Shown: positions 1,617-63,441 of the stretch, one piece after another | How the letters are laid out: each line of letters opens with the position of its first letter | Numbering within the stretch: position 1 is the stretch's first letter | DNA from: a virus | Direction: 5' to 3' (one strand) | DNA length: 64,000 nt | Virus record (IMG/VR): IMGVR_UViG_3300047445_000314 | Coordinates: 1-64,000 of that record | The notes under the pieces: model-generated | The model's database searches: none | What the model was told of the DNA's origin: nothing | The model's input: only the letters and a program-made list of their open reading frames with translations | Translations under genes and position numbers: made by a program

Positions 1617-1647
1617 GGCGGTGGTCCTCCGTTCCACCGCCCGTTTT
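1617..1647 (+). terminator. Rho-independent terminator after thyA
   Basis: GGCGGTGG/CCACCGCC stem followed by a short T-run. Confidence 0.6.
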
Positions 1648-1663
1648 GACATCGATTGCAAAT

Positions 1664-3890: not shown

Positions 3891-4194
3891 AATTGGCACA
3901 GTGTATATTTGGCAGAACCAGGTCGGTGAGGGTGAGCACTTGAATGGTACGGAGACTACCGTTATCGGTGAGTACGGGCCGCACTATGGCCTTGGTACGG
4001 GCGTGTTTCTTGGGTACGGCCAACGTACTGATACGCCTACCGGCGATAACATCGAGGACAGCTACTGGTTCGCCGAGCGCGGAGATTTGCGCCCTAGAAA
4101 CGAACCACCCAAAGCAGAGCAGGATATCCTGAATTTGTTCTTGATTGCAGAAACCGACCGCGCGTTTGATTACGCCGAGGAGCAGGAAGCGTGA
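3883..4194 (+). CDS. Hypothetical protein
   Basis: AAGGAG RBS, ATG 3883, coupled to neighbouring genes. Confidence 0.6.
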
Positions 4195-4574
4195 GAGACG
4201 GCAGCCTTCCCCTCCCCTTGAACGGCGGACACCATGTCGGCCCGCTATTCATTCCGCAGATCAAGAAACCACTGGTCCGCCCGCCCGGCAAGGAAGGCAC
4301 GGTATGGCGGCAGCAGACGCGCAGGCGCACCCCCAGGTGGGCACGGCAAGGCGAGTACTGGTCGCAAATTGCTGCTATTTACGCGGAAGCGCAGCGCATG
4401 ACGGCCCTTACCGGCATCCTTCACGTCGTTGACCATATTGTGCCTAAATGCGGCAAAACCGTCAGCGGCCTACACCTACCCTGGAACCTGCGCGTGATCC
4501 CCTGGAAAGAGAACGCGATCAAGGGCGCGTGGGTGTGGCCGGACATGTGGTTCGAGCAGATGGATTTGTTTTGA
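4191..4574 (+). CDS. HNH endonuclease
   Basis: '[35 protein letters not shown]' is an HNH signature. Confidence 0.85.
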
Positions 4575-5333
4575 AGTCAATCTCAAACCGCCCGCCAGGT
4601 GGGCACAGATTTTTAGTAACTGGAGAACGTTGTGACCTTTATTGACCTTTGCGCGGCCGGGCTAGAGAGTCCGGAAAATATTGATGATTGGATTGATCGG
4701 TGGCACGTCGATCCGAACACGGCAGACGGCGCTGTGTTACACGACCATCTGGGTATGACCCGCGCTGAGTATGCGCTATGGGTGTTCAGCCATGACGCGG
4801 GAGAGGCGATCTGGTGGATCGTGCAGCGGCGTATCGCTGGTGTTGTGCTGTCGCGCGACGAGCTGTAGACTGGCCACGCTGGTAACTACCGCTGCTATTC
4901 CTTGCCTGGAGAAAACCATGTACGCATCTGCTGAGATGGCTGCCCCGACCTACGCGATGGACGATGCCTACCGCATCACCCTGAAATACCTGACCTACGA
5001 GGCGGCGCTGGCTGCTGCGCTACTGGCCAGTCCTTATCTACGTAGCAATGGATACACCGTCACCACAGTGACCCCCTCGTCGGCCAAGCAGGATATCGAC
5101 CAGATCAAGAAACATGCTGAATTCATTACCCCGCCCGACGCCGTATGGCAAGACACCACCGAGCTGCAATGTGGCTGGCTAGGCAGCGCCTTGATCCACC
5201 GCTGGCACCGCGCCGACAAGGACGAGACGTTCTACACCCTGGTGAGCCGCGAGTAGTCCCCGAAAGAATGTAAGATATACGTACGCCAACAAAACGGCGC
5301 AAATTTTGCAACCAACATCAAAAAGGAGTCACC

Positions 5334-7430: not shown

Positions 7431-7732
7431 CGCGCGCTGATCATGTAAAATGAAATTGATTGCAAAACGAAGTTAAACCACCCGCACCTTGAAAGGGGCA
7501 TGCAATGAACGACGACCAGATCAGCGAAGTGATGCGGCTTGCCAGCCTATATGCCACCGCCCGCGTGATTAAGCACCGCACCCGTATCGGTGACATCACG
7601 ACGGTCACGCCTGAGCAGGCGGCGGACCGTGCCGCCAAAGCAGAGCAGGAACTGAGCGACTACCTGAAAACCATACCGTAATTGATCACGGTATAGTAAC
7701 TACATGACCAACCACCTTGAAAGGGGAATAGT

Positions 7733-10237: not shown

Positions 10238-10509
10238 CCCGTACACCTACTGAGGCCGAAATACTAACCATCGCCACCCATCGTGATTTTACTGTCCACA
10301 AATACAACTACCGCCATGAGAAGCTGCGCAAGCTGACGCGCCGCATGGCACAGGACGGCAAGCTGACGATGGTTATGTATGACGGCAAGCAGTTTTACTA
10401 CCGCACGCCGAGCGCGGTGGACACCAAAGAGCAGGGCGCGGCGGTATAATGAACTTGTCATGGATTTGACATTGATTGCAAAACGTTTCACTACTTTGAA
10501 AGGTATATC

Positions 10510-12787: not shown

Positions 12788-14089
12788 GGAGGCATCATGC
12801 TCAGTGATGTAAAGCTACGCTGGCGCGAGGACGAGGATCATAGCAAGGAAGTTGCACTGGAGATCGACGGCGAATTCAAGATCGCGTGGCACGACAACGA
12901 TGCGGTGGTCATGCGTAAACCGAGCATGTTTAATGGCAACCCAGACCAACGCTATCTGGCCGAAGGCGTCGTGTTGCAGATGCTGCACGAGGCCTATCGC
13001 GCCGGTCGTGAAAAAGGCGAGCAGCAGCTTACCGCTGTTCGTCAATTACTCAATGCACCATAGGAGGCATCATGCCTGAAATCAAACCGGTGAAGGTTTT
13101 CACAAAAGATCAGCCATGCACCAAGCTGGAAATCCATAATTGTTTCGCTGGCCCGCACGGGTATATTGCGCGGCCGGTCGTGGAAGCGCAGGGAGAGATC
13201 GGAAAAAACGCACCCAAGCACATGCTGTCCAAGCTGTACCTGGTCTACCGCACGGTCGGTAATATCGACTATTACGAGCTGACGCGGACCGGCACAATTT
13301 GGCTGCATGACGGCCTGGCAGCGTACTTGAAACACCATCCAGACCGTCAAAAAGACGTCAAAGTGGTCAGTTCCAGCGTACCCAAACCCGCCACCGCCGT
13401 GCGGGTAGCGCGCAGTCCTCGCAAGGCGTAGAATCACATTAAAGCGCGAGAACGCACACATTTTGCAATTGCTTGCAATTTAACGAAAATATTCTAACCA
13501 CCTGAGAGGTCTATCATGAGCACTGTATCCACCACCAAAGTCTACAAACGCAGCACCAATGGCAGCGCGCTGTCCCCTCCCGACCCGGTAGTCGCCGCCG
13601 ATCTGGTCGCGCTGGCGGCCGGGGTGAATTTCACCTCGGTAGTCAAGGTCATGCTGGCGATCAATGCCGTGGCCGATCACTACGGGGTGACGCCGGAGCT
13701 GGTCATGTCTCCTTCCTTCATCCCGGCGCAGGGTGCCAACGATGAGCGTTTCGACGCCACCGAACAGGCCGCGCTGGGGCTGGAGGACAACCCGCTGATC
13801 TGGCAATACGAAAAGGAACTGCATTTCATTTCCCGCCGCCGCCACAACCGGGAGCGCGCGTGGGCACGTACGCCACATAACGGAGAACGTGATGTCGGAT
13901 AAAGACCCACGCGACTACCAGCAACTGTGGCGCGAGACCCTGGAGACGGAGCGCAAACTGCGTGAGGCGGAAGCCCAAGCGGAGAACGCCACCACCATCT
14001 ACCACCTGGCCATCGCCCTGTTCTCCGTCGTCGGCGTCGCCGCCATCGCTGCCCTGATATTCGCCTTGTAACCACCCTGCGAGGACATC

Positions 14090-16582: not shown

Positions 16583-17269
16583 ATGAAGACCATTGAAGCC
16601 CTGATCCCCGCGCCGACCGCGCAGGCCACCCCTGTCGTCGGCAAGCCCAAATCGCTGCGCAAAGGCAAAGCAGCACAGATTACCGCCGCCGCGCCTGCGG
16701 AAGATAGCGCGTGGCCCTTCCCGACCACGGCCAAGGAACTCCTGAAGACCGAGACCAAGCCCGAAGTCAAGACCCTGTCGCCGTCCAGCATCAAGGCCAA
16801 GAACACGGCCAAGCCCAAGGTGCAGGAGAAAGTCAAGGACACCGCGCCGGTCGCTGTCGAGACCTTCACGCCGCGTCTGATGACCAAGGGCCAGCCCATC
16901 TTTGCACTCGACGAGCTGCGCCGTCCGGGTTCCGGCGCGATGCTGTTCGCCCACACCCACGCCGTCCTGACGATCCTCGGCATGCTGGATGCGGCGCGAC
17001 CGGCTGTCAGCAAGTCGGCCCTGCTCACCATGATCGGCAAAAGCGCCGTGAACCACCACACCAAGAAGGATAATCTGGAGAGCGCGCCGGACAACAAGAT
17101 TCGCCTTTCTGTTACGGGCTACAACTTCTTCAAGGCGCGTGTCAGCGAGAACAAGTTCAGTTCGAACGTTGCCAGCGCCTACCAGTCGGCGATCCTGGAC
17201 GGCACCCCTAGTGATCTGACCAGCCCCAAGGTCACGAAGGCCAGCCTGTACCAAGTATCGTTCGGCTAA
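16583..17269 (+). CDS. Protein with a K/A/P-rich N-tail and putative wHTH (paralog of 34425-35012)
   Basis: Shares the 'GSGA.LFAHT.A.L' and 'L(S/T)..G..(F/H)F.AR' motifs with 34425. Confidence 0.75.
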   Translation: MKTIEALIPAPTAQATPVVGKPKSLRKGKAAQITAAAPAEDSAWPFPTTAKELLKTETKPEVKTLSPSSIKAKNTAKPKVQEKVKDTAPVAVETFTPRLMTKGQPIFALDELRRPGSGAMLFAHTHAVLTILGMLDAARPAVSKSALLTMIGKSAVNHHTKKDNLESAPDNKIRLSVTGYNFFKARVSENKFSSNVASAYQSAILDGTPSDLTSPKVTKASLYQVSFG

Positions 17270-17684
17270 CAGGCAGCACCGCCCTGCGCCCGGAGCGCAG
17301 GGTTTGCAGTCAACAACAAAAGGAGCGGCACACCATGGTTAAAGAGATCATCGAGATACAACTGAGTAACGCACCCTACCACGCCGAAGTGGCATACGCC
17401 AACGCGATGAGGCGCGCGGTGGAGGTAGCACCGGGGTACGTGACATTGCGCTTCACCGATATGGAGTCGCTGGATTTATTCACGCAACATCTGGAATACA
17501 GCGCAGGCTACACCTACCATATGGAGCGTGACGATTGTAGCAACATCGGGTTCACCTACAACAAGGACGGTGTCGCAGTCTTCTCCTTCGCGCCGGGCTA
17601 CCACCTGGATTCGGAAATCACCCTGCTCAAGTAGGGCGCGCAGGGTTTTGCAATCAATCTCAAACTACCTTGAAGGGAGAAACC

Positions 17685-20234: not shown

Positions 20235-20522
20235 AAATGAAATTGATTGCAAACCAAAGGAGAAATGACGTGAGATTCGCTACCTTCATCAAGAGATATG
20301 TACCCAACATGATCGAGACACTGCCCGATCAGATACAGCGCTACAGCGCTGCGTCAGAGGCCATACGCCGCAGCGACATCAGCCACATCTGGACCTGCAT
20401 TGAGGCGGACAACGTAGGATGTATCGTGCCCGGCTTCCACCGCGTCAACGCCGAGTACTATGTCGTGACGGCCCATCCGTGGGAACGTGACACGCTGGTC
20501 GTTAACCTGTAAGGGCAGAGCC

Positions 20523-20810: not shown

Positions 20811-22580
20811 CGCGGTATGATGTAGTTATCGGCAGGGAGCAAGGTAGTAAAACCCCTCGCCGAATTAATCTTTTTTCACTTAGACAAGGAGAACTGACAT
20901 GCATGCGAAAATCATCAAATACCCTGGCTACCCGCTCGGCGCGCTGGAATTCCCCAATTCGGTGCGCTACGTCGATGGTAAAACCTTCGTGCGCGCGGAT
21001 GGCGTCATCTACCACACCACTGCCCGCATCAATGGCATGTACCCGATCCGCCATGTCGTGGAACCGAGCCATCCTGAATACCGCGCTGCGCTCAACGCCT
21101 TCGCCATCCCGGCCAGCCTGCCGCCGCAACTCGGCATCAAGCGCGAGCGCGCACCGTTCTGGCGCGAGGTCGCGGAGGCCTGAACACGGATACCGTTGAC
21201 AACCACGGGCAAGCCCTGTAACAAGGTTGCAGTCAATCCGGGTTTGCAATCAACTTCAAAGGAACCATCGTGGACCTATGCAACGCGGCACTACAGTGTG
21301 AGTTGGAATTCCCGATGGTTGCCTATGGCGTGGCGACAACACCGCAACTGGAGGAGTTGCTACGCAGTATGAGGTCAGACACCGTGGTCACCCGCGACCC
21401 GCTGGTCATCACGGTGGACCTGGATAACGGCTTCCGGCTGTGGTCGGCGTTGGCCGTGTTGCCGGGAGTGTGGTTCATCCATGCCCGCGCCGGTTTGATT
21501 ATTGAATGAATACTGAATAAGGAGAAACACCATGCTGCATTATGCAACTACCTTCATCGGCCACCCGCTGGTCTTGCCGACCATCGCCATGATGGTGATC
21601 GGGCTGGTTCTGTTCGTGGCCGCGCGGGTGGTCTCCCGCTCATTGCTGGCACCCATGCCGGTGAGCTACACGCCGCCCCGCGAAACCAAGTGGCTCGGTA
21701 AGGTGGAGTAGATCATGAAGAAGAGACCATATATCGTCACCATCGCCCTGGACGTATGGGACAAGAAGCTCCTGTACAAGGCGGCGAAAGCACGCGCCAT
21801 CGCGGAGGGCGGTGGGCAGGAATTGCTGAAATACGCAGGAGGTGGTATCAATATCGAAGCCTGCCTCATCATGCTGCTCGACCCCGGTAGCCTCGATGGC
21901 TGCTCGATCGACAACACCATCGTGGAGAACGTAGCCTAGCGTGATGCGCTATGATGAATCTATGGGCAAGCGATAACCGCCGCGCCCATAGCCAACCACC
22001 TAGAAAGGGGAATATCGTGAACACCAACACTTCCAGCCTGATCTCACTTCCTTACCCGCCCATCGCGCCGCTGACGGATGGCAAGGCCTACCTGGTCATC
22101 GGACCGGACGGCCCTGATCGTCCGTACTATCAGGGTTATGACCGTGACGTCGCGCGGCTGGTTCGCAACAGCCTGTCGACCGACCTGGTCACGTTCTCCA
22201 ACTTCGACTAAGCGCGAAGGGAATCCCATCATGCTGATCGTTAAACTTGCCATCACCGTCAGCGCGCTGGGTCTACTCGACTACGCACTCGGCCAGAGCC
22301 GCTGCGCCGTATGGACCATCGGCGTGATGTCGGTCGCGGCCGGTGTATGGGTCGCCGCACTCACTTTATAAGGAGAAATACCGTGTACAACAGCATGTTC
22401 AAGCCGCTGAATAACGAGGAGCTGGTTGCCTACGCCGACTGGGCGCGAGGCAATTACATTCCTGGCACCAGCATCAATACCACCTGGCATCCGGCGGTAC
22501 GGCTGGAATGCGAGAAGATGAACCTGGAGGAAGTACAGAGACAGCCACGCGGCGGCGCACCGTTCTGATTCATCCCTTTC

Positions 22581-22616: not shown

Positions 22617-24590
22617 GGCGGGCGCGGCCGGTGCTGGTGCTGCTGGTGAGGAGTGGGGAGGTAAACTGATGCGGCGCGCTGGCCGTACATAGCCATGCTG
22701 ATGCGTTATAGTAGATGCATGGCACTACCGCAGTTCCACCCGCAACCAGTCACCTAGAAAGGGGCTTATCATGGCAACCCATATCATCGGCCAGCGCGCA
22801 CCGAAACCACTCGCGCAAGGCAGCACGCACATTGCAGCGCGCAGCATGGCACCTACCGCACCGCAGACGGTCGCACAGTCGCGTATGCACGCCGCGATAA
22901 CCGGCGCTTGCATGGTCGTTAGCAAAGCCCTTGCTGCCCGCATGCAAGGCAGTATCATCGTCAAAACCAAGGGCGGGTCGGTGTACGGCTATTTCGCCAA
23001 TGAAGACCGGGCAGGCGCTTTTATCACCCGCAACAAGATGCAATTGTACGCCGTCATTGTCCCGGCATAAGGAGCTGTCATGCGTTTCTCCGAAATCACC
23101 GAAGGTACTGTGTTCCTGGACCAGTACTGTGACACCTACACCAAGCGCTCGCCTGATTACGCGGAGCGCCTGCGCGATGGCCAAGAGACCGGCCGCCGCG
23201 TGGAATTCCAGCCGGACGATGGGGTTATTGTGTTGTCCAGCGAGCAGCGCTGGTCGTATATGATGTAGGTTCTTTCCACCACACCACCTTGAAAGGGATG
23301 CCATGAAACCACCGCAGCACCACAAGCATGTGTACCACCAGCGCCGCGTGACGGACGAAACGGACGCGCAGGATGCCGACAACGAGCAGATCATGCTGGT
23401 CGAAGTTGACAACGCCACCGGAGTACACCGCTTCTGGGTCCGCATCAACGTGGCGCGGCCGATCTGCAATGCCTTGCTGGGGGAGGAACACTCCCCGCGC
23501 CAGCGCATGCTGACCGGCGTCGGCGTCATGGCGCTCGGCGTGCTCATCGCCAAGTGCTTCGGGCACAGCCCGATGATGCTGATCTCCAGCATCGGCGACT
23601 GCGTCGGCTATGGCTTGCACGGCCTGGGGCTGACGCCGTTCATCGAGCACCTGGCGGAACGGGTGCGCAGGAAACGTACGTAGTACCGGGCGCGGAGGTT
23701 CTGTAAAGCCTCCGCTTTCGCGTTAAACCGGCCCGTACAGGGCGCGCAGGACAAGCGGGCAGGGTAGGCTAGGGCGGCGCGGAAAACGCCCCAAATAGCC
23801 CTTAAAACCTCACCCGCCGTCACTGAGGGGAGCAGCATGAAAAGCATCAACAAGGGTATCAGCAACACGCTGGATGCCATGTTGTTCGGCGTCCTGGCAA
23901 TACTGGTCAGCGTTGCCTGCCAGCGCGCCCGCATCCGCGAGTGGCTGTGGAGCTAACGTCGTGATTTTGCAATCAACTTCAAAGGAGCATTACCATGTAC
24001 ATTCCACAAAAAGGTGACATCGTGAAGGTCGTTGACCTGCATCAGCAGGACGCTTTCTACGAGGATGGTGAGGCGTATAGCTTCATCGGCACCCTGCGCA
24101 CCGTCACGATTGGTGCGGACAAGCCTGGCGTCCACGCGGATGCTGAAAACGGCTATTTCGCGCTGGGTCTGGATGGAGAACCTGACAGTCCGTTCTTCTT
24201 CGGTGTCAAGGTCGAACCGGCGTTCGGCTTCTGACCCTCCGCGCTGGCACTACCGGACTACGCTGATACGCTATAATTACTACATCGCCCCACCAACGGG
24301 GCGACAATCTAAACCACCTTGAAAGGGGAATATCATGAGTATGCATATCCATTACACTGCCGCCGACAAATCGGTCAACGAAGCCAAGGCCCTGCGCGAT
24401 TGCAAGGACTACCTGGGCGGCAAGTTTTACACGGCCAAGGCGCTGTTGAAAAAACAGGCTGACATGAACGAGCGCACCACCAACAAGTACCGCAGCATCG
24501 CCATGGCGCTGGACTTCGCCGGGATACGCGGCTACTGGCCGGTACGCGCCATGGTGCGCGAAGTCCTGAAGTAAGCTACACCGATCAACC

Positions 24591-24612
24591 ACCCCGCTGC
24601 GGCGGGGTTTTT
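24591..24612 (+). terminator. Rho-independent terminator
   Basis: ACCCCGC/GCGGGGT stem followed by a T-run that merges into a palindrome site. Confidence 0.7.
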
Positions 24613-24637
24613 GCAATCAATAACAAAGGGGATCGAT

Positions 24638-24841: not shown

Positions 24842-25558
24842 ATATCTCACCAAGACCGACACGGAGGGCGTGCCGTTGTTGGTCCAGAGAGTTGAATACA
24901 CACATAGCAACATGTGCTTTACGGCGCACATGTTCAATGGGGATAGCGTGACGCTGGCCTCTGAACTCGTGTCGCCGACCATGGGGCTTATGCAGTTATA
25001 CCCCACCCACGAGCAGCAAGTGGACGCGTTCGCGAGAGCTGCACACTATATTGGTCTGCACTACGCAGCACAAAGGAGATAGCCATGCATTACCTATCAT
25101 TCGCTGACGGCCGAATCAAAACGCTAAGCGCGGCGAGCGACGACCCCCTCTTTGCCCTGGCCGTGGCCAAGGGCTACGCGAGCATGTTTGGCACGCCTTG
25201 TATTCTGGTACGCCAGTCCGATCATGTGATCGTCGCCTCCGTCATCCGTGACGGCGCGGGTGGTTTTAAAACCATCCCCGCCACCATCGTGAAACAGTTT
25301 AAATAGGAGAAAACCCCATGTTCACCCATCGCTACAATGGCCTGTACATCCACGGCTATTTTGACAAGCCTGAATGCCACGTTACCGGCAGCAGGACGCT
25401 GGACCGCATGTTCAAGAGCTACCGCGCCGCACAGATCGCCATCACCAAGGCGCGCAGGGCTGGCGTCCCGCCGATGTACTGATACGCTATAATGGAGTTA
25501 TTGAAGTTGATTGCAAAACGCAGTCAGCCAATACTCGCCACCTTGAAAGGGGAATGAA

Positions 25559-37051: not shown

Positions 37052-37884
37052 CAGCCCAGCAACAGATATATCCACAATATGTACAAAATAGTTGTACCGA
37101 GGACATAATGTCATGGTACAATAGGGACTATTCCCTAGCGTAATCACCAGACATATACCAGCCCATGCAGTTTAACCTCACGTCGGTGGTTTACGGCGTA
37201 TTTACGGAGATTATCATGATTGGTTTCAGCTTATCCTTCTGGTTGCCGGGTAACTTCAACACCGGCCGCGCGCTACTCAACTTCCTGCTGTGGCTTTTTG
37301 CAATTGATATCAAATACGACCCCGACCAGCGCAGCTTGATGCTGGTAGCCCGCTTGACCGGGGTCGAGCTGACCGTACGCATCGCCGGGGTAGACCGGGA
37401 GCTGGCACCCACTATACACGACGAAAACAGGGTCGATGGGCACCAAAAAGCAGCCGAAGAGTTCATCGAAAACATCAAAAAAGGCGCAGAAAGTAGTCAA
37501 AAATACGCGGAAAGCAGCCAAAACACCGATAAAAGCACCAAAATACGCGTCAGAGCGGTCGATAACGATGGAAATGTGCGCGCCAGCACAGAAACACACG
37601 AAAACGGAGGCAAAGGAGGGCCAGTCACCGATGCACCGAAATGGGCGCGCGAGCTGATGCGCAAGGGTGCGTCGCTGATCCTGATGAACCGCAACATCGT
37701 TGACGAGCAGGAGTACAGCTTCCGACTACCCATCCCCGCCAGCGCGCTGGCCCTGGAGATCGGCTCGGTGGCGGTATTCGGCACCGAAGACAACCATATC
37801 CTGTGCAAGGTCACCGGCTACCGCGAGGAAGAGGATGACGGCAGGCTATATTACTACACGAAAACTAAGCTGTAAGGAGGTAGC

Positions 37885-38238: not shown

Positions 38239-38476
38239 TTTGCAATCAACTTCAAAGGAAAACCATGCTGCGACTTACCTACCATAAAAACCGCAAATTC
38301 GTGAAGGTCGGCGACGCCGTGTATGACACCGAAGACCAGCCCGTCACCGTACGCGAGATTGTCCGGCCCGACGCCGTGCAATGGCCCGAAGGGCGGGTAG
38401 CCCTGGAGTGCGTCAAGACCGGCGTGATCGCCTTGTACGATGTCAGCATTATCCGTGCCCACTGGAAAGAAGAAGC

Positions 38477-41184: not shown

Positions 41185-42906
41185 ACAACCTTCGATACTA
41201 CATCGATCCCGACCTGCTGGAGAAAGAGAAAGCCATGTACACCGAGGTAGTAATAGGTGGCAACGGCTTCTTTGCAGGCTGCAAGATATATATTGACCCT
41301 ACGTTGCCGATCGACACCATTGAATGGCGCGGGGCTAACCGCGTACGCCTGAACATCCGTACAGGCGAAATCACTGTAACGGAAAGGGAATAAATCATGA
41401 CACTCGACGACCTGCGCAACAGCTACCCTTACACCGCCTCCCGGCGCAAAACCACGCGCCATCAGTTTGTACTGACCACCGAGCAGCTTTGCCAATTGCG
41501 CAAAGTACACGAGGACCTGGGCGAAAAGGAGATCAACCTGCACCTGTGGTGGGCGCAGCTAGGGGAGCAACTCGGTTTCAAATGGTGGACCATGAAAGTG
41601 GTCACCGCGCAGCCGCTGACCTTTACGGCGGAACTTAGTTAATTCTCTTTCGGAAAGAACCTGCTTGCCATAAAATACAGGTTCCGACCGAAGTGCATCC
41701 CAAGAGGTTGCCATGAAGAAGTTACTGAATGTCCTGTACCGCGCGAGTCTCCGGGTAGATATGCTGGCGGCTACCGCCACCGATAGCCTCATTGACTGGC
41801 TTAACAATCCCAGCTCCGACCGCTGGGTCGATCGCTTTATCCTCGGCACCCTGGTGGCTATTGTCACCGTCGTCGCGGTTCTCTGGTGAGACGACCATGA
41901 AACCACCGCAAAACGGCACCCAGGACGAGTTCAGTGAGGCCTCGCTACGTACCCTGACCACCGCCAAGCCCATGTCCAGGGAAGAACATAAAGCCATCCA
42001 GCAACAACGTATCAAAGCCCGCCGCGACAACGAGGACCGGGCCATGGAAAGGGAAATAAAATGATGCCGATGCCTGCCCCGATCACCACCGCCACCTATT
42101 GCCGGGAATGCGCGAAGCGGCTCACATCGCTTTCCGCAGAGACACACTACGTACGTTGCCGTGGCCGCAACCCATACAACCGGGCATGGGAGACCAAAAA
42201 TATCCCCATGCCTTTTTGCGATGCAGCATGTTTTAAGAAGTACCAGCGCAGCGCCGACGAAGATTGAAATTGATTGCAACTCCAAGGAGAGCAGCATGGA
42301 CAGCGAAGAGGGGCGGGGCGGCATACGGATCATCCGTACGCTGGTATGTAGCGGATGTACGATGTGTTGCGTCGCCGACCCAGTTACCGGCAAGCCCAAG
42401 CAGAACCTGCACTACCTATCCTGCGAGGATATCACCGAGGGTAGCGGTCAGCGCCTGGCCATGACCAATGAGGGGCAGCATAGCCACGCCGAGTTCCTGT
42501 TCAACGCGTATTGGGGTACGCTGGATTGGCATCAGCACGTCAGCCGTATCGTTGCCTCTGAGATATGGCACGCCTCCGCTGATCATCTCAAATAGCCACC
42601 GACGATATATAATTGTTCTATGGGAATCATTGAACATAGACAACCAGGAGATAACATGCCGACACCCTATTTTTGCAGTAACCGCTCGCGCCCCGACCCG
42701 GCGCGCAAGCTCCTGGTACAAGATGGGTACATCACCGTCCGCGTGGCGGGATTGCACGGAGTCGTTACCTTGCGTCAGCCCAATATGGTTGAGGTAGCGT
42801 GCCCAAATACTACCGATTGCCAGTATGACCGGAGCGCACTGGATGCGCGCTGCGCAGGCTGTAACAATGCTCCCCATTTGCGCATCCCGCAGCATGAGGT
42901 GACAGC

Positions 42907-45199: not shown

Positions 45200-46267
45200 A
45201 TGCAATTCGATCCAACAAAAATCAGAGTATCGAAACACTTCATTCTTTCAGATTTTCTGGGCAACCATAGCGTGTACACGCGCGGCATACCGAACATGCT
45301 GGACCCGCACGACCCGGAACTCCCCCTGAAGATGGCCAACCTGCACGCACTGTGCGACGAGTTCCTGGAACCGTTTTTGGAGCAGGCCGGGCCGTTGTCG
45401 ATCTCGTACTCCTACATCACACCGGAGCTGTCCGATGAAATTGTCCACTATCAGGATTCCCGTAAGCCGTCTCATCACCAATTCAACCTTGGCGCGGCGG
45501 CAGATATTATCTCCCACGAATGGGTCAACGCCGACCCCGAAGACGACAGCGCCACCAGCGCGCCAGTTATGCTGGCTCATGAAATTGCCAGCAGTGGGTA
45601 CCCTCTCTCCCGACTCATTACCTATTCGGAGTCGCCGTATCTTTGCGTTGCTGTATCGGCATCCGAAGTTGCGGAAGGCAAGCCGCGTGGCGCGTTCTAT
45701 GAAAATCGCTACACCGGCCACAAAGGCGAGAAGCCTGACTACCGCAAGTACCCGTCACCGGCTGCAAAGCATGGCGCGCTGGCGGCTCTTGTAAAGGAAG
45801 GCCTCTCCCACGGCTGGCGCGGGCAGGGCTACCCCAGTTACCATGGACACGGCCGCCGCCAGTACCATCATATCCGGGTATCCGACTACAGCATGCTCTC
45901 CGACTGGCTATTCGATTTGCAATCAGTTGCAAACGGCGCGAAAAACATCCCGAACGTACAGAATCCCAACTTGATGGAATCCTTCTACCTCGCGGGCGAT
46001 CTATACGACAGCCTGATCAAGGAAGGCGGTCACAACCGCTACTCGATCATCAGCGGGTATGTCGATCACGCCAACCCGTCCTTCGTGAAGGAAAACGACT
46101 GGGCGCGGGGCCAGGGCTGGTTCACCGTAGTCATGCCGGAAGGGGTGGAGGTCGCGCAGGTGATGACGAACATGACCCCTGCCACCGCCACCCAGCCGAT
46201 CTGGGAGCACGCCTATATACAGGACATGGGCGAGGGCAAGATGCGGGTCCATTTCCAACAACAATGA
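45200..46267 (+). CDS. Peptidase M15-like protein, divergent, with a tandem domain
   Basis: 'SKHFILSDFL', 'NLHALCDEFLEP', 'SHH..LGAAADI'; a second 'IRVSDYSMLSDWL...IISGY' unit follows. Confidence 0.65.
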   Translation: MQFDPTKIRVSKHFILSDFLGNHSVYTRGIPNMLDPHDPELPLKMANLHALCDEFLEPFLEQAGPLSISYSYITPELSDEIVHYQDSRKPSHHQFNLGAAADIISHEWVNADPEDDSATSAPVMLAHEIASSGYPLSRLITYSESPYLCVAVSASEVAEGKPRGAFYENRYTGHKGEKPDYRKYPSPAAKHGALAALVKEGLSHGWRGQGYPSYHGHGRRQYHHIRVSDYSMLSDWLFDLQSVANGAKNIPNVQNPNLMESFYLAGDLYDSLIKEGGHNRYSIISGYVDHANPSFVKENDWARGQGWFTVVMPEGVEVAQVMTNMTPATATQPIWEHAYIQDMGEGKMRVHFQQQ

Positions 46268-48541: not shown

Positions 48542-48581
48542 ATTACAGTCCTATTTGCAATTGATTGCAAAGCATGTTACG

Positions 48582-51257: not shown

Positions 51258-52757
51258 ATGACCAGCAAACGCATTGCCCGCAGCGCAGCCGGTAACCTCG
51301 TCAAGGTGGACACGCCGGAATTCCTGAGCCTGGTCGGCAAGCCCGCCAACCAGCGCCCGTTCCAGATCATCCGTTCGGCCCGCCCAGCCAAGGCCAAGCG
51401 CGGCGAGGACGCGGTCCTGATGATCACCTTCCCAGATGACTACACCGAGGAAGACGCCGCCGCCGCGCTGGAGAGCTTCGGCATGGAAGGCTACACCCTG
51501 GTGGTCGAGGAGACGCTGTGCTACGCCTACCGCAGCGATTTGCAATCAGTTGCAAAAGTCCAGGAACTGAAGCCCACCACGGTACGCCTGACCTCGGACG
51601 GCGTCACGGCACACATCGATCCGGCGCAATACCAGCCGAAATCGGGCAGCGAAGGCACCGGCATTGGCGTGTGCCGTTACGAATTCACCAAAACCACGTT
51701 CGATAATGACAAAATTATTGCGTGGGGTAATCAAAATGGTGTTGACATTTCCGTCGACGCCATCGAGAATTCGTCCAGCGATGTGATTTCGGTTTCCCGC
51801 GCGCAACTTACCGAGGGTACCGAGGTCCGCAGGATGGAGCTGGAGGCAGGTGTCACCGCCGTCATCGTCCGCACCGATGGCATGCAGATCATCGACGGCG
51901 CGATCAAGATTCCGGACGGCTTTGTCGCCGTGGTCAATGAAGCAGCCTACGGCAACTGGGGCTGGGGTCAGATGGACTTCTACGCAGCCAGCGCCGACCG
52001 CGCCTTCTGCGAAGAGATGGAAGACGCGGCGTGGCGTCTGCGGGATGTGATGAGCAACATCATGTTCTACAACCAGCTTCCGCTGGATACCCGCAAGCAA
52101 CTGGTGACGCGGTGCTTGCAGCAATATGGACAGTTCATCTCGGATGCAATGGATGCGCTGCCCCGTCAAGTTTTGCTGCTCGCCAGTCGCGCAGATTCCA
52201 TTAAACGAAAGGATGTTGACATGACTATCGATGCCGTGAAAGCCCAGCAAGAACTGGACAAGATCGTCGCCAAACGCGCCGCCGATGAAAAAATCGCCCA
52301 GGATGCCGCCGATAAGGCTGCCGCCGAGAAAGCAGAAATCCAGCGCGCCGCTGACGAGAAAATCGCCACCGACAAGGCTGCTGCTGACAAGGCCACCGCC
52401 GACGCGGTCTCGCTGACCATGACCCGCGCCGACCTGGACAAGATGATCGCCGACGCCGTGGCCAAGGCTACCACCGCCGCGCCTGCTGTCACGACCGAAA
52501 CCGCCGTACGCAGCGAAGCCACCACCACGACTACCACGACTCCTGCTACCGCAGAAGCTCCGGTCGCCATCACCCGTGCCGATCTGGAAGCCCTGCTGGC
52601 TGCCGCCGTCGCCCCGCTGGCGGAAAAGGTCGGCCGCCTGGAAGGCACCACCATCGTCCGCAGCGCGGATGGCAACGAAACTGCCGCTGTGACCGCTACC
52701 GAGAAGAGAAGTGTCTTCCGTGGCATCTTCAACAATCTGACCGGCACCCCCGAGTAA
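51258..52757 (+). CDS. Scaffolding / head-assembly protein
   Basis: N-terminal 'LSLVGKPAN', Ala/Lys coiled-coil C-terminus; lies between the protease and the capsid gene. Confidence 0.7.
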   Translation: MTSKRIARSAAGNLVKVDTPEFLSLVGKPANQRPFQIIRSARPAKAKRGEDAVLMITFPDDYTEEDAAAALESFGMEGYTLVVEETLCYAYRSDLQSVAKVQELKPTTVRLTSDGVTAHIDPAQYQPKSGSEGTGIGVCRYEFTKTTFDNDKIIAWGNQNGVDISVDAIENSSSDVISVSRAQLTEGTEVRRMELEAGVTAVIVRTDGMQIIDGAIKIPDGFVAVVNEAAYGNWGWGQMDFYAASADRAFCEEMEDAAWRLRDVMSNIMFYNQLPLDTRKQLVTRCLQQYGQFISDAMDALPRQVLLLASRADSIKRKDVDMTIDAVKAQQELDKIVAKRAADEKIAQDAADKAAAEKAEIQRAADEKIATDKAAADKATADAVSLTMTRADLDKMIADAVAKATTAAPAVTTETAVRSEATTTTTTTPATAEAPVAITRADLEALLAAAVAPLAEKVGRLEGTTIVRSADGNETAAVTATEKRSVFRGIFNNLTGTPE

Positions 52758-53801: not shown

Positions 53802-53844
53802 GTTTTGAAATTGATTGCATAATTTACGACAAAGGATAGGTATA

Positions 53845-56755: not shown

Positions 56756-57063
56756 CATTTCAGGAGAACGCCATGACCAGCATCAAAAATGCAATTGATT
56801 GCAAAGAGACCGAATACGTACTGACGGCGGTTGCCCCTTGTCAAGTATCTGGTGTAGACTTCGCCCCAGGTGCCACGATCCGTACACGCAACCAAGGTAG
56901 CCGGGATTACTTGGTCGACACGGGCGCGGCAGTGGAGGAGAAAGTAGAAAACGTAGACGTACCGGAGACACGACAGGTGTCCGAGGTTGCCGCAACATCA
57001 CCCACCGCGCGCGGTCGCATTGGCCGTAGCCGGTAATTTGTACCAACTGGATATAACAGGAGC

Positions 57064-57981: not shown

Positions 57982-60900
57982 ATGGCTGACAGCCAACTCA
58001 ACGTAACCATCCAGGCACGCGATGAGCTAAGCCCCGACTTGAACCGGCTGGAATCGAAGCTGATCCGGTTTGTCGGGGCGGTTACCTCTGCGCTGGCTGC
58101 CATCAAGATTTCCGGACTCCCTATCTCCACCGCAGGCGATCTGGAGCGCGAGCTGGCGAACGTCAAAAAGACGACTGGATTCACTACCACCCAGATTCTC
58201 GACCTGAATGACGGCTTGCTCAAGCTGTCCCTGCATAGCGACCAGTCCGCCTTAAACCTCGCAAAAATCTCCTCCGCCGCAGGCCAGCAAGGTCTCGGCG
58301 GGGCTGGTGTAGCAGGTGTGCTGAAGTTCACTGATTCGATCGCGCGCATGGCTTCGGTGCTGGATATCGAGGTGGGCAAGGCCGGGTCCGACATGGGCAA
58401 GTTGCTCAACATTTTCAAGATCGATATCAACGACGTTGAAAAGGCGGCGTCCGGTTTCAACGAAGTCACCAACCACGGTGCTATCAACGCAGGCAACCTG
58501 CTGGATGCCGTCAAGCGCATCGGTGCCGCAGCAGGCTCGATCAATGCCACGCCGCTGGAAAACCTGCGTGACGCTATCACGCTCGGCGCTACCGGCATCG
58601 AGCTTGGTCTGTCGCCCGAGGTAGTCGGCACCTCGTTCACCAAAATTCTCGTGCAGCTCAAGACCAAGCGTGCGGATATTATCAAGGCGCTGTCCAGGGC
58701 GGAAGGCAAGCCCGTCACCGAGGATGAATGGCTGGCGGATGTAGAGAAAAGCGGAATAAACGCCTACCTGCGCCTCACCAAGGCACTGCGCACCTTCACC
58801 GGGGCGGGCCAGGCGGAGCTGATCAGCAGGACGCAAGGTCAGGGCCGTATCTTCGGTCTAGGTGACAAGGCACTGCAAGACGTCAACGACGATCTGATAC
58901 GAAAGAATCGTGCCAACGCAGCCAAGGGGATCGACACCGGTACCTCCGCGCTGCGCGAGCAACAGACCGTCTTGAATACGTTCAATGCACAGGTCGAGAC
59001 GCTTAAAAATAGCCTATTTAAGCTCGCGGCGGACGGTGGCCAGCCACTGCTCGCCGTCCTGACCAAGTATGTCGGACAACTCGCGTTAGCACTACAGGCT
59101 CCCGGTATGCGCGCCTTTATCGGTGCTGTCGTCAAATCCTTCGGCGACATGATCGATCTGGCCGTCTCCCTTACTAAGGCCGTCTCGGCGCTTGGTATCA
59201 ACTGGGAGAACTTCATCAAGGTGGTGAAGGTACTACTGACGGTCAAGGCCGTATCGTATTTCCTGAATCTGGCGACTAGCCTGCCAATCATATCCGGCCT
59301 GCTCAAAAAGGTCACGGCAGACACAGCAGCGGTCGGCGCGGCAGCGACAGGTGCAGGAGCGGCCGTTGGCGCGTCCAACGCCAAACAGATGAACTCCTGG
59401 GAGGCGCTGCGTGCGTCAGTCAAAAAGACTGCTGACGCCTACCGCACTGCTTCCGCCGAGCGTATCGCCGCCGCTGAGAAGGAGGCTGCGGCAACAGCCG
59501 CATTAGCCGCGAAGGCGGCTGCCTCCTTTGCCGAAAAAGATGCTGCTATCGTCGCCGCATATCAGACCAAGGTGGCGAAGTCCGCCGCTGCGGCGTCACA
59601 GAAGCAGTCGCAGCCCGCACTGAATCAAGCCCGCGTTAGCTTGAATACCGCGCAAGGTGCGGTAGCCGCTGCGATCACGTCAGGCAATGCAGCCATACAA
59701 AATGGCGACGCCGCCCTGGCCAATGCCACCAATACCGGTCAAGTAGGAGTGGACAAGGCGGTCGCTATCGGCCAGGCAAAGCGCGCGGCGGCACTGAAGG
59801 AGCATGAAGCGCAGATGGCCGCTATTGAGGCGGAGGCGCGCGGCAAGCGTACTGCGGTCGATAAGGAAGCCAAAGCCTTTGCGCTGGCACAAGAGGAGGC
59901 CTTCTATACTAAGCAGCTTGCCTCATTAAAGGTGGCGGACGCCAAACGCATCCAGCAGGCCAAAGTCGCGGCGGATGCGTTGCTGCTCACCACCACGCAG
60001 CGGGTGGAGCAAGAGATACTGGCAGAAAATGCCAAATTACTGGCGATGCAGAAGGGCGCGGCGCAGGCGAACATCGCCAATGTTATTGCAATAAAAAATG
60101 CCGAGCAACTTGCTAAGCTGCGCGCCAACGCAGCAGCAGGTATCCTGCCGATCGTACCCACCACGGGTCCTGGATTGGGCGGAGGTCCGGCACCTGCCTC
60201 GCCTACCCCTCTACCACGCGCGCCTGCTGGCGGACTTTTCGCGGGGTTGAGCAAGCTCGAAGTATTGGCTGTTGGACTGACGGCGGTAGGTAATGCCCTG
60301 AAGTTTGTCCTAAGATGGCTGGGTCCGGTCTACCTGGGCTTTATCATCCTGGGTAGCATCGCCGACGCGCTAGGCTGGGTAGACATACTGCCCAAAGCCC
60401 TGCGCAATCTTGGCGACTGGCTAGGCTTCAGCAGCGAGGCTGCGCGTAAAGAGGCGCAGGCGATGGAGGAATCAACCGCTGCAATGAAGCGCAAGAATGA
60501 CCGCATCAAGGAGCAGGTAGACCAGTACAAGGAGCTGTTGCTGATCAACGGCAAGCTCGACAAGAACAAGTCCGACGACGTCACCAACAAGATCAAGCTG
60601 AATACCGACGCCAAGACCAAGGCGCAAGGGGTGGATCAGCTTGGTGCGTTGTTGAGTGCAGCGCGGCTGGTGAATACCGACGCACTGACAGAGGCCAGCG
60701 CACAGCCTGCTGTGGATGCCGCGAAGAAGAATGAACTAGACGCGTTTCCTGCCAAGATTGCTAAGGCCAAGGCGGAGTTGGCTCAACTGCAAAAATCGCT
60801 GCAAGACTCCAACACGGAGACTGCTGGGTTTTTTGCTACTGCTGTCGAGAAACGTACTGTCGAGCTGAAGACGATAGAGGACGCCTACGCAATCGCCTCT

Positions 60901-63441
60901 GGTCATGCCAAACAACTGGGCCTGGATTCGACCAATGCAGTCAAGGCCGGGGTGGAGGACTCCAGCGAGGCGCTGGCGGTGTTCGTCAATAAAACCACCA
61001 GCATCTTCACAGACGCCAGCGCCATTATCTTCACACAGATGGTGGTCCCTCTTATCGAAGCACGCGATGCTCGCGATAAGCTGCTAGTCGATATTGCAGA
61101 GCAGCAGAAGATACTCGACAACCCCGGCGCAAGCAAACAGGACAAGAAAGAGGCCACTGAACGGCTGGCAGAGTACAACGAGCAGCTTAAGGCCGCTAAG
61201 GAGACCTTCCGCCTGTTCGGCGTGGCGATTAGCGATGTCAGCAAAAAGATAGCCGAGATGAAGGGCGTTCCGCAGAATGTCCTGGACTCGGTCGCCCTCG
61301 TACTGGGGATTGCAAATACCAAAGAAGTGACGCTCGCCTCCGCGAAGGCTATCAAGACGGAGCTTGCCACCGCCAAGCAGCAGGGCACCCCATTGACCGG
61401 TGCCGATGCAGGTAAGACGCTGGATAAGCCGAAGGCGACCGGCAGCAACACGGTTGATCCAAAGGGTGGAGAGAGTGAAGCGCGTAAGCTGGCGAAAGCG
61501 AAGGCCGACCTTATCCGCGCCCAACTAGAGGCAGAAGCTGCGATAAAAAAGCAAGCCAACGACAATGCCTTGCAAGAGGACCAGCGCCGGTTCGATCGTG
61601 GTCTGATCGATCTGAGGGAGTTCTACCGGGAAAAGGCGCGAATCGACACCAACAACCTGAATATCGAGATCAACCTGAAGCAGGATGAGATCGACAATAA
61701 GCTGAAGGAACGCGGCGATAAGTCATTCAAGGAATCCGACCGTGTCAAGATCGACAAAGAACTGGCTATCTTGCGAGGACAGAAGGCGGTTCTGATATCC
61801 AGGGTCAACGAGATACCAGCACAGACTGCGGAAACGATCCGCAGGGCGGTAAAAACCTTCAATGAAGGGGTATTGGCCGACAAGCTCAACCTGGTCAAGG
61901 CCTTCGGCCTGGATGACGCCGAACAGGCAATGAAGGACCAATTTACCCTGATCGAGAGCCAGATCGAGGAGCGTATCCAGACATTGGAGACCGCGTTGTC
62001 GAAGAAGCGGCCAGGTATTACACGCGGCCTCATCGACGGTCTCAAGCTGGATGCGCTGGTTAAAGCTATCGACCCGCTTTTGCAATCAATTGCAGATCGG
62101 GCGCGCTTGACCGCCGACGCGGTGCAGAATGCCTTTAACCGTATCGCCTTCCTGCGCAATCAGGGAAAGGTCACCGATAAGCAAGTCGAGCAGTTCACCA
62201 ATCTGGCCAACGCGGAACAGGCGGTGGCGATCCAGCGACAGATCGACGATACCGAACGCCTGATCGCAATCAATAATCGCGAGATCGAGACCAAGATGCT
62301 TGCGGCAGGTGCTACCCGCGAGAATATCCGTGCGGCCATCGAGCAGGATGTCGCTTACCAGCAGAATATCAATGCACTGGACGGCCTGAAGCTGAAGTAC
62401 CAGGAGTTGACGGCGGTAGTCGACGAGACGGCGACATCAATCAACCATGCGCTGGAAGCGGGTATCAGCAATTCGCTAACCAATGCGATGAGCCGCAGCT
62501 TTGGTGGCATCCGCCGCATGCTGGGCAACCTGCTGACCGACCTCGGTCATGCGATCCGCGAATCCGTCGCCAAGGAATTCTCCCAGACCATCATCAAGGA
62601 TGTGCTCGGTGGCGGCGGCACGGGTGGTATCGGCGGCTTCTTCTCCGGTCTATTGCGGGGGGCTGGCGACGGCCCGAAGGCGCTGATCGATAAGGACAAG
62701 CTGGGTCGCACCAAGGATAGCGCGATGTACGTCCGGCTGGCCGACGCGCAGGATGCGCTGGTCAACCCACAAGGGCAAGGCCAGGACAGCGCGTTCGGCC
62801 CTACCCCCAACGGCGAGACGCTGAGCCTCAAGGATTTCAGTAAGGAGACCCAGGACGCGGTCGGTGCGGCGGAGGACGGCGCTACCAAGATACTCGCCAG
62901 CGCCGGTAATGTGTTCGCCGAGCGCGGCCTGCAAGGCGTGGTAGAGCAGGGTATCGGCAGCGTCAAGAAATCGCTGGTGAGCGGCGTATTGAACCTGTCC
63001 AACGATACCAAGGGCGGCGGTATATTCGGGGATTTCTTCAAGGCGGTCGGTAGTACCTTTAAAGAAGCACTAAAGGGTATCGGTGATCTGCTCGGTTCTG
63101 CTTTATCGGGGGTGGGAGGCATTCTCAGCGGTGTATTCCACACGGGCGGCGTGGTCGGTGAAGGCTCCGCCATGGCAACCGTGTCGCCTATGGTGTTTGC
63201 CAATGCGATACGCTACCATACTGGTGGCCTGGCAGGGTTGAAGCCGAATGAGGTACCTGCCATCCTGCAAAAAGGGGAAGAGGTATTGACCGCGAACAGC
63301 CCACGCCACCGCGACAACATTGCCGTGGCACCGAAGGCACCACCGGTCAACTTGCAATTGTCGGTACATCCGGACGCGCTGAACATGACCTTGCGCGACT
63401 GGTTCGAGTCAGAGCTGGCGCGCATTCACGCCAACCGGTAA
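57982..63441 (+). CDS. Tape measure protein (1819 aa)
   Basis: TP901-type N-terminus 'LANVKKTTG', Ala-rich helical body, C-terminal 'RYHTGGLAGLKPNEVPAILQKGEEVLT'. Confidence 0.95.
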   Translation: MADSQLNVTIQARDELSPDLNRLESKLIRFVGAVTSALAAIKISGLPISTAGDLERELANVKKTTGFTTTQILDLNDGLLKLSLHSDQSALNLAKISSAAGQQGLGGAGVAGVLKFTDSIARMASVLDIEVGKAGSDMGKLLNIFKIDINDVEKAASGFNEVTNHGAINAGNLLDAVKRIGAAAGSINATPLENLRDAITLGATGIELGLSPEVVGTSFTKILVQLKTKRADIIKALSRAEGKPVTEDEWLADVEKSGINAYLRLTKALRTFTGAGQAELISRTQGQGRIFGLGDKALQDVNDDLIRKNRANAAKGIDTGTSALREQQTVLNTFNAQVETLKNSLFKLAADGGQPLLAVLTKYVGQLALALQAPGMRAFIGAVVKSFGDMIDLAVSLTKAVSALGINWENFIKVVKVLLTVKAVSYFLNLATSLPIISGLLKKVTADTAAVGAAATGAGAAVGASNAKQMNSWEALRASVKKTADAYRTASAERIAAAEKEAAATAALAAKAAASFAEKDAAIVAAYQTKVAKSAAAASQKQSQPALNQARVSLNTAQGAVAAAITSGNAAIQNGDAALANATNTGQVGVDKAVAIGQAKRAAALKEHEAQMAAIEAEARGKRTAVDKEAKAFALAQEEAFYTKQLASLKVADAKRIQQAKVAADALLLTTTQRVEQEILAENAKLLAMQKGAAQANIANVIAIKNAEQLAKLRANAAAGILPIVPTTGPGLGGGPAPASPTPLPRAPAGGLFAGLSKLEVLAVGLTAVGNALKFVLRWLGPVYLGFIILGSIADALGWVDILPKALRNLGDWLGFSSEAARKEAQAMEESTAAMKRKNDRIKEQVDQYKELLLINGKLDKNKSDDVTNKIKLNTDAKTKAQGVDQLGALLSAARLVNTDALTEASAQPAVDAAKKNELDAFPAKIAKAKAELAQLQKSLQDSNTETAGFFATAVEKRTVELKTIEDAYAIASGHAKQLGLDSTNAVKAGVEDSSEALAVFVNKTTSIFTDASAIIFTQMVVPLIEARDARDKLLVDIAEQQKILDNPGASKQDKKEATERLAEYNEQLKAAKETFRLFGVAISDVSKKIAEMKGVPQNVLDSVALVLGIANTKEVTLASAKAIKTELATAKQQGTPLTGADAGKTLDKPKATGSNTVDPKGGESEARKLAKAKADLIRAQLEAEAAIKKQANDNALQEDQRRFDRGLIDLREFYREKARIDTNNLNIEINLKQDEIDNKLKERGDKSFKESDRVKIDKELAILRGQKAVLISRVNEIPAQTAETIRRAVKTFNEGVLADKLNLVKAFGLDDAEQAMKDQFTLIESQIEERIQTLETALSKKRPGITRGLIDGLKLDALVKAIDPLLQSIADRARLTADAVQNAFNRIAFLRNQGKVTDKQVEQFTNLANAEQAVAIQRQIDDTERLIAINNREIETKMLAAGATRENIRAAIEQDVAYQQNINALDGLKLKYQELTAVVDETATSINHALEAGISNSLTNAMSRSFGGIRRMLGNLLTDLGHAIRESVAKEFSQTIIKDVLGGGGTGGIGGFFSGLLRGAGDGPKALIDKDKLGRTKDSAMYVRLADAQDALVNPQGQGQDSAFGPTPNGETLSLKDFSKETQDAVGAAEDGATKILASAGNVFAERGLQGVVEQGIGSVKKSLVSGVLNLSNDTKGGGIFGDFFKAVGSTFKEALKGIGDLLGSALSGVGGILSGVFHTGGVVGEGSAMATVSPMVFANAIRYHTGGLAGLKPNEVPAILQKGEEVLTANSPRHRDNIAVAPKAPPVNLQLSVHPDALNMTLRDWFESELARIHANR

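Follow-up and report, generated by a model that had tools for sequence, protein, structure and literature searches.

Why does one phage chromosome carry the same 16-base palindrome about every 2 kb, between its genes and inside them? We addressed this question in a window of 64,000 nucleotides, the whole stretch of DNA analysed here, which represents positions 1-64,000 (the first 64 kb) of the 99,206-bp IMG/VR record IMGVR_UViG_3300047445_000314 (genome G000). The repeated motif has the core TGCAA-N4-TTGCA and is dispersed along the entire ~100-kb chromosome. We find it rather likely that these palindromes form a docking lattice on duplex DNA for one symmetric phage protein, which would load at the sites and spread from each of them over a limited range.

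An earlier note on this DNA had listed copies of the motif, and the motif is indeed present at every position given there. Scanning with the consensus of that note (up to three mismatches allowed) returned 26 matches in the window against 0.21 expected, and none of 100 shuffles reached 26, which corresponds to a more than 100-fold excess. When sites were scored with an iterated, symmetrised position weight matrix (PWM), 32 strong sites were found in the window and 46-47 in the full record, against 0.3-2 in codon-shuffled control genomes. The motif is thus real, but its proposed consensus needed correction: in G000 it reads TTTGCAAT-YR-ATTGCAAA, with a centre that is mostly CA or TG, the CG centre being limited to two copies. 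The two TGCA(A) cores stand exactly 10 bp apart, on one helix face, and because TTGCAA and its TGCA core are themselves palindromic, the site can equally be described as two TGCA cores 10 bp apart. Both orientations occur (CA versus TG centres, ~23 versus 17 on the coding strand), the TTT/AAA flanks described earlier are present around the copies, and no flanking repeats or duplications accompany the 16-bp unit. The sites of the window are listed below, without strand; scores come from the PWM scan of the window (32 strong sites) unless stated otherwise, and RBS denotes a ribosome-binding site.

1646-1661, lattice site, TTGACATCGATTGCAA, intergenic, directly 3' of a terminator-like hairpin; PWM 22.5
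2982-2997, lattice site, intergenic, the start at 3007 lying 9 nt on; 28.1
4571-4586, lattice site, overlaps the end of gene 4191-4574; 20.0
5306-5321, degenerate lattice site, intergenic, upstream of the RBS of 5334; 16.2
7450-7465, lattice site, intergenic; 24.4
10466-10481, lattice site, intergenic, TATAAT box 15 nt upstream; 23.3
13463-13478, lattice site, intergenic; 23.3
17304-17319, degenerate lattice site, between a hairpin (5') and an RBS (3'); 14.7
17648-17663, lattice site, intergenic, 3' of a hairpin; 23.3
20237-20252, lattice site, intergenic; 24.4
21244-21259, lattice site, RBS-fused (…TTCAAAGGA), partial copy at 21227; 25.0
23967-23982, lattice site, RBS-fused; 25.0
24611-24626, lattice site, terminator hairpin on one side and RBS on the other; 20.4
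25501-25516, lattice site, TATAAT box 7 nt upstream; 25.5
27625-27640, lattice site, intergenic, partial copy at 27584; 24.8
29452-29467, lattice site, intergenic; 20.8
30491-30506, lattice site, CG centre, intergenic; 24.9
31621-31636, marginal copy, 13.3 in the first PWM scan, outside the 32 strong sites of the window
32324-32339, lattice site, TACAAT box 4 nt upstream; 25.6
33741-33756, lattice site, followed by a terminator-like hairpin; 18.1
34315-34330, lattice site, 8 nt upstream of a strong sigma-70-like promoter (TTGAAT-17-TATAAT); 23.0
37298-37313, lattice site, deep in gene 37165-37875, encodes FAIDIK; 24.3
38240-38255, lattice site, stop codon 5' and RBS 3'; 25.0
39037-39052, lattice site, intergenic; 26.4
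39578-39593, lattice site, 5' edge of gene 39569-39922 (LKSIA); 27.8
39934-39949, lattice site, intergenic; 20.1
42264-42279, lattice site, overlaps the stop of 42061-42267; 28.2
45917-45932, lattice site, deep in the 355-aa gene 45200-46267 (LQSVA); 24.1
48555-48570, lattice site, the sole perfect 16-bp palindrome, intergenic, followed by a terminator hairpin, upstream of a 117-aa gene and the portal gene; 28.7
51540-51555, lattice site, deep in the scaffold-like gene 51258-52757 (LQSVA), in an alignment column common to G002 and SM1, 16/16 in L010; 24.1
53805-53820, lattice site, 3' of the capsid-gene terminator, position kept in L010; 25.1
56789-56804, lattice site, 5' edge of gene 56773-57036 (NAIDCK); 25.0
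62080-62095, lattice site, deep in the tape-measure gene 57982-63441 (LQSIA); 22.3

Among the copies that had been called partial, those at 21227 and 27584 are indeed weak and that at 31621 is borderline, and the intragenic copies said to encode LQSVA or LQSIA do so (LQSVA at 45917 and 51540, LQSIA at 62080 in the tape measure). The 32 window sites divide into 23 intergenic sites, 3 that overlap a gene end, 2 at the edge of a coding sequence and 4 deep in one; for the record (n=46), the corresponding figures are 32 intergenic, 5 at gene ends or edges and 9 deep in genes. A simple gene call placed 183 of 186 genes on the + strand and 90% of the DNA in coding sequence; by this call, ~70% of the sites fall in the non-coding 10% of the DNA, with a ~3-fold enrichment at gene junctions. 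Long genes (the tape-measure, scaffold-like and 355-aa genes) hold internal copies, as if filling gaps, and no copy was found in the portal, PolA and AAA+ genes, which encode highly conserved enzymes, in any genome compared.

Relatives of G000 were retrieved via the portal, and the TGCAA-N4-TTGCA lattice was also found in G001, G002 and four cultured phages, with inner bases that are specific to each lineage:

G001 (99 kb), TTGCAAT-CG-ATTGCAA, 40 copies
G002, TTGAAAT-YR-ATTTCAA
Pseudomonas phage SM1, GTGCAAG-CG-CTTGCAC, 33 copies, by de novo discovery
Rhizobium phage L338C, TGCAAC-NN-GTTGCA, 55 copies
Aeromonas phage HJ05, TTGCAAC-CG-GTTGCAA, 26 copies
Agrobacterium phage JP1, TTGCAAA-CG-TTTGCAA, 47 copies

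The TGCAA-N4-TTGCA core is invariant, the base adjacent to the centre varies over all four bases between lineages, and the 16-bp dyad has a central CG in four of the seven lineages. Phages that share only ~33% portal identity, from four host genera, still have the lattice, its cultured carriers infecting Pseudomonas, Rhizobium, Agrobacterium and Aeromonas; in culture it is represented by at least four phage groups, namely Samunavirus (P. aeruginosa), L338C (Rhizobium), JP1 (Agrobacterium) and HJ05 (Aeromonas). A further relative, G003, is 99.9-100% identical to G001 and spans its end-to-start junction, so that G001 is closed, circularly permuted or terminally redundant, at ~99.3 kb. Since G003 is the same phage as G001 and the sites of G004 repeat the same series, neither is independent of G001.

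The sites are also evenly spaced. Gaps in the G000 record average 2.1 kb with a coefficient of variation (CV) of 0.61-0.63, against ~0.97 for random placement, and the largest is 5.7 kb where two nulls expect ~9-10.8 kb; in the window the CV is 0.60 (P=0.0016 versus random placement). That gaps rarely exceed 4-5 kb, as the earlier note had it, agrees with maxima of 5,291 bp in the window and 5,746 bp in the record. Even spacing holds in all seven genomes (CV 0.42-0.66), with P<=0.001 in the six complete or near-complete ones and 0.015 in G002, a 29-kb fragment. Under a null that keeps the split between junction sites and sites deep in coding sequence, it persists in G000 (P<0.001), G001, G002, G003 and SM1, the largest gap being about half of that expected.

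Within genes, the copies are conserved as DNA. The copy in the scaffold-like gene occupies the same column of the protein alignment in G000, G002 and SM1, in three motif variants, and the encoded peptides differ by lineage (LQSVA, LKSIS, SAIAC). In L010, where overall nucleotide identity is 69%, this copy is identical at 16 of 16 positions, and only 1.8% of the 16-nt windows of the gene are fully conserved. A shared column filled by differing variants, together with the identity in L010, indicates that the sites are old, evolve in place as specificity drifts and override coding constraints; the synonymous conservation in relatives that the earlier note expected of intragenic copies is thus observed. 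Deviations from the consensus are, moreover, one-sided: 77 of 81 in G000, and 37/40, 39/43, 36/48, 14/14 and 26/26 in five other genomes (229/252 over the six) affect one half-site with no compensating change in the other. Such uncompensated changes favour a site that a protein reads on duplex DNA over a hairpin; two half-sites bound by a symmetric protein behave in this way.

How would such a system operate? The 16-bp site would be the dock for a single symmetric DNA-binding protein that the phage encodes, in the form of a dimer or of a dimer of dimers, and selection would keep neighbouring sites no more than ~5-6 kb apart (~2 kb on average) over the full length of the chromosome. Sites would be accommodated where they cost least, in intergenic spacers or else in tolerant segments of long genes, and the protein would spread or slide from each of them, so as to reach the entire genome. 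Such coverage could serve genome-wide silencing or timing, organisation, or the self-marking of phage DNA. That a protein binds, that the phage encodes it and that it acts at a distance are three points that we infer; because no DNA lies more than ~3 kb from a site, a rule to be expected of a loader with limited range, we favour a load-and-spread lattice. The earlier proposal of one dimeric protein along the whole genome therefore stands as the best reading, on account of the dyad symmetry, the uncompensated changes, the override of coding sequence and the even spacing; a classical switch is unlikely to be its main role, and its likeness to stoperators and the binders named for it are not supported.

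These named binders (16583, 34425, 8461, 24638 and 31946) have no detectable DNA-binding domain and no Pfam or PHROGs match. The 16583/34425 family was further rejected as the reader since it is limited to the G000/G001/SM1 subclade and absent from distant lattice phages. Its two paralogues (16583-17269 and 34425-35012) combine a Lys/Ala/Pro-rich, histone-H1-like N-terminal tail with a conserved ~110-aa C-domain (RPGSG.RLFAHTHAVL…FKAR), and they may be a subclade-specific DNA binder of the nucleoid type. The profile-based core of the six complete or near-complete genomes consists of the head module and a syntenic replication cassette (AAA+ ATPase, p208, DUF1257, DUF2997, p114, a 461-aa protein, DnaB, PolA and primase). 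The head of this cassette (AAA+ ATPase, 208-aa protein, DUF1257 and DUF2997; L030/L031, record 83580-87605) is syntenic in all six lattice genomes. From it, p208 was discarded for a poor Atlas model and p114 because a word-indexed search matched only p114 itself. Covariation of recognition helices with the motif was uninformative or negative for the O-like initiator and for TerS, and PDB sequence searches with TerL, TerS and a 454-aa protein returned nothing useful.

Better candidates lie in DNA that the G000 record lacks. The open reading frame at 1-561 of the window covers only TerL residues 459-643, and the record ends (98507-99206) just past the primase gene, without a ~12-kb segment that SM1 and G001 have between primase and terL. 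Its products in these two phages are, besides the TerL N-terminus, a helicase, a UvsX-like recombinase and a Cas4-like exonuclease; two proteins with a ParB_N domain, of which one carries a fused methyltransferase; another methyltransferase; and a helix-turn-helix (HTH) protein, the putative TerS, whose gene overlaps terL. In SM1, the short ParB_N protein is SM1_051, the ParB_N-methyltransferase fusion SM1_052, the HTH protein upstream of terL SM1_054 and the O-like initiator SM1_034. Because it starts at TerL residue ~459, stops after primase and misses this segment, the G000 record is incomplete, although CheckV estimates 100%. In G001, TerL is fused to an N-terminal PhoH-like domain (L021:14912-17797, 961 aa); PhoH and TerL are separate genes in SM1.

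ParB_N genes are present in 5/5 relatives searched, near terL in 4/5 and elsewhere in L338C. The short ParB_N protein is strikingly well conserved: it has 614 homologs, of which the top 120 (58-77% identity) lie on 85-107-kb contigs, and ~35 clusters at 50% identity match its full length. The lattice motif was found at 13/13 IMG/VR loci that encode the full-length short protein (GC 40-62%), versus 0/67 loci (997 kb) with a generic ParB_N domain only, where the motif is at background. The N-domain of the short protein matches CTP-bound ParB, Noc, KorB and PadC at Z 9.5-10.4 (KorB, Z 9.5), in a fold match that spans only residues 25-130. Between this core and the C-module lies a DCL-x8-DCL segment (G001 L021:11197-11901), whose two Cys are invariant in alignment A3 and may constitute a metal or redox site where the subunits of a dimer meet. 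A ribbon-helix-helix structure was considered for the C-module and abandoned, as no fold matched and the strand residues do not track the motif.

Several observations weigh against this protein as the reader, or against the lattice as a loading system. At the position of the GERR motif, the short ParB_N protein reads GHTR (G-H-H-R in JP1, G-H-G-R in L338C), G, H, T and R being invariant in alignment A3 and invariant or nearly so in alignment A4. Neither the HTH_ParB (PF17762) nor the KorB (PF08535) domain gave a match at E<=1 in five genomes, a divergent domain elsewhere being possible. The strand-strand-helix-helix C-module has no known fold (best Z 3.7), and residues of the protein do not co-vary with the site variant. 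Its co-occurrence with the lattice is phylogenetically confounded, as every clade-specific core gene would match the lattice in the same way. The candidate gene is also absent from the G000 record itself, where ParB_N (PF02195) had no match at E<=0.01 in a sequence devoid of the relevant ~12-kb segment. Finally, site density is higher in the early region of small genes, so that operon architecture could supply part of the regularity. The GHTR motif, the lack of a detectable HTH_ParB or KorB domain, the C-module without a known fold, the absence of covariation and the confounding led us to rate the short ParB_N protein beside terS/terL in relatives as the leading candidate for the binder, not as an established one.

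A more specific version of the docking lattice can be formulated, which we put forward tentatively and regard as possible rather than probable. A chromosome-wide marking or coating system, so far undescribed, would define a large clade of 80-110-kb proteobacterial siphophages, in which a ParB/Srx-fold nucleotide-binding protein without canonical HTH, possibly with its methyltransferase-fused paralogue, would read the TGCA-N6-TGCA lattice for self/host distinction in packaging or for shielding from host defences. If true, the ParB superfamily would have a function not previously assigned to it.

Could the sites instead be local operators or roadblocks, stoperator-like or phiC31-CIR-like, of a global transcription regulator, their spacing mirroring operon size? 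The ~3-fold enrichment at gene junctions fits, as do the sites directly after -10 boxes (window 10466, 25501 and 32324; SM1 23650) or just before a strong promoter (34315), the start codon within 45 nt of 27/47 sites and the denser placement among small early genes. Many copies fill the short space that separates a stop codon or terminator hairpin from the following Shine-Dalgarno sequence. By strict criteria, however, only a minority adjoin a predicted terminator or strong sigma-70 promoter in G000 and five relatives: most sites lie away from confidently predicted ones, and their position relative to promoters varies. In the relatives, 20-50% of sites are deep in genes, and the even spacing survives the null that preserves the junction/deep split. 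The sites are also symmetric and used in both orientations, unlike stoperators, and cultured relatives are reported lytic. We thus consider local operators unlikely, and the classical global transcriptional switch proposed in the earlier note is unlikely as the main role, given the minority of sites at predicted promoters and terminators. A promoter function of the palindrome itself was discarded (no consistent -10 spacing, both orientations). An oriented bipartite motif, GGTGGGCAC-N9-TATACT, occurs 14 times against 1.4 expected, 13 times on the + strand and with all but one match in the early region (window 3533-33844, e.g. 31824, 33231, 33277 and 33821); it has the look of a promoter class specific to the phage and separate from the palindrome, which, given such a separate oriented motif, need not be a promoter. 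A replication lattice, in which dispersed sites for a lambda-O-like initiator would act as multiple origins or load helicase or primosome at about Okazaki spacing, is less likely still. Its initiator would be the 461-aa protein (record 89602-90987), core to all six genomes and part of the syntenic replication cassette, which resembles Phage_rep_O by a lambda-O-like winged helix (Atlas score 0.94, TM 0.62) and by sub-threshold Pfam matches of its orthologs (5.6e-5 and 0.01). Dimers of lambda O bind dyad iterons, a spacing of 2-3 kb is similar to the length of Okazaki fragments, and the initiator-like gene holds its own motif copy in 5/6 genomes, in the interdomain linker in G001 and SM1. But one copy per 1.4-kb gene is about what chance would give at the observed density, no site has a tandem iteron cluster or an adjacent AT-rich element, and the putative recognition helix shows little conservation and is not the same in G000 and G001 despite their common half-site.

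The sites could also be distributed pac-like marks, read by an HTH small terminase or the neighbouring ParB_N proteins, which would let headful packaging start anywhere on phage, but not host, DNA. Immediately upstream of terL, G001, SM1 and HJ05 have the ParB_N pair, a methyltransferase and the HTH protein (putative TerS), JP1 has a single ParB_N gene, and the relative UF_RH6, reported lytic, has a genome that PhageTerm describes as circularly permuted without a dominant terminus, as many start sites would give. We nevertheless regard this as improbable: even spacing is not obviously needed to start packaging, sites do not cluster near terS, the TerS HTH is not strongly conserved and the ParB_N genes of L338C are not beside terL. 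A hairpin in RNA or single-stranded DNA, acting in mRNA processing or stability, as a terminator component or in priming, would account for a palindromic motif with many copies between cistrons or near terminators. It is very improbable, since deviations are almost never compensated, the frequent TTGCAA/TTTCAA pairing would leave a 6-bp stem with a mismatch at its middle, copies lie deep in genes at conserved positions and, in a 20-bp scan, 0/47 G000 sites are perfectly self-complementary over the aligned 16-mer (central YR pair counted). An element of the repetitive extragenic palindrome or miniature inverted-repeat transposon type was rejected on the one-sided deviations and on the 20-50% intragenic copies. 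Least credible of all is a reading as the box of a host transcription factor, as a product of chance composition or as a miniature mobile element. The central-CG variants do fit the generic LacI/PurR-type operator pattern TGnAAnCGnTTnCA, but the >100-fold excess, the positions kept between lineages and the bare 16-bp unit speak against it. In a scan of bacterial genomes (one per species), the palindrome appeared only as isolated single copies in unrelated phyla, at about the chance rate by our own estimate, so the common host box that the earlier note had considered finds no support. Two Rhizobiaceae phages carry different variants, which, together with these bacterial single copies, argues for a phage-encoded reader.

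Other features of the window stand beside the lattice. An extended Shine-Dalgarno context, (C)TTGAAAGG / TTCAAAGGA, recurs before many starts (e.g. 7490, 10495, 17668 and 25545), and in one orientation the weak half of the palindrome provides its TTCAA. The ~1-kb gap at 2011-2982 has no credible open reading frame, and in it, at 2118-2216, ARAGORN predicts a single unusual tRNA-like gene whose anticodon has four bases (gcgg).

If the sites load a genome-covering protein, the lattice would add a new principle to the organisation of lytic phage genomes. Protein sequences are constrained by it, it outlasts deep divergence, and its ~40 sites per genome drift together. The motif is, in addition, a practical marker of this phage clade and its fragments in metagenomes, and because cultured phage groups carry the lattice, the system is directly testable.

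How does the lattice compare with known systems? No paper describing this repeat turned up when the literature was searched for the motif strings and for the related phages. Ori-lambda has four tandem iterons and an AT-rich region at one locus. Lambda O iterons and the lattice have in common dyad sites and an O-like initiator gene, with a copy in its linker in two lineages; the iterons are tandem at one locus, whereas lattice copies are single and dispersed over the genome, and a search for tandem iterons with an AT-rich region in six genomes found only single copies in or around the initiator gene. The bacterial parS and NBS sites resemble the lattice in being 14-16-bp palindromes with a central CG (in most lineages, for the lattice), and they are read by a symmetric protein that covers flanking DNA. 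However, parS sites are few and clustered near the origin, and canonical ParB (GERR plus HTH) was not found in the five relatives searched, nor was a ParB_N domain in the G000 record. Judged by its residues, the candidate would fall outside the ParB-clamp family on GERR; the lattice site is a palindrome of the 14-16-bp kind.

The closest mechanism is that of KorB, a member of the ParB superfamily, which loads at the palindromic O_B operators of the IncP-1 plasmid RK2 and slides ~1.5 kb (PMC11790492): there too, a palindrome is dispersed over the whole replicon, some copies are far from promoters and spacing sets coverage. The candidate differs from KorB in having GHTR rather than GERR, no KorB/ParB HTH and no known KorA-like partner, and the lattice, at 3-4 times the density of O_B, lies on a lytic phage where RK2 is a plasmid. 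Cluster A mycobacteriophages distribute ~25-35 stoperators over a ~50-kb genome, mostly in short intergenic gaps; these are asymmetric, oriented with transcription and bound by the monomeric immunity repressor of temperate phages (PMC9283540, PMC6550527). Density is similar, but the stoperator analogy drawn in the earlier note fails: the lattice consists of symmetric, often intragenic sites in either orientation, on phages reported lytic.

The closest description is that of the Cluster O mycobacteriophages (Corndog), lytic siphophages with more than 30 copies of a 17-bp dyad repeat, 5'-TGTTCGGNNNCCGAACA, about one third of them intragenic, most off promoters and without an orientation rule, for which the authors predict a dimeric binding protein (PMC4351075). 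The lattice has all the traits of this description, that is >30 copies of one short dyad throughout the genome, part of them intragenic and most off promoters. The two repeats are unrelated in sequence, the host phylum is different, and even spacing is not reported for Cluster O, whereas the lattice is evenly spaced. Cluster O comprises five near-identical genomes, while the lattice spans ~33% portal identity and four host genera, with drift of the motif in place; if the palindromes described here are loading sites, they would offer a general context for the unexplained Cluster O repeats.

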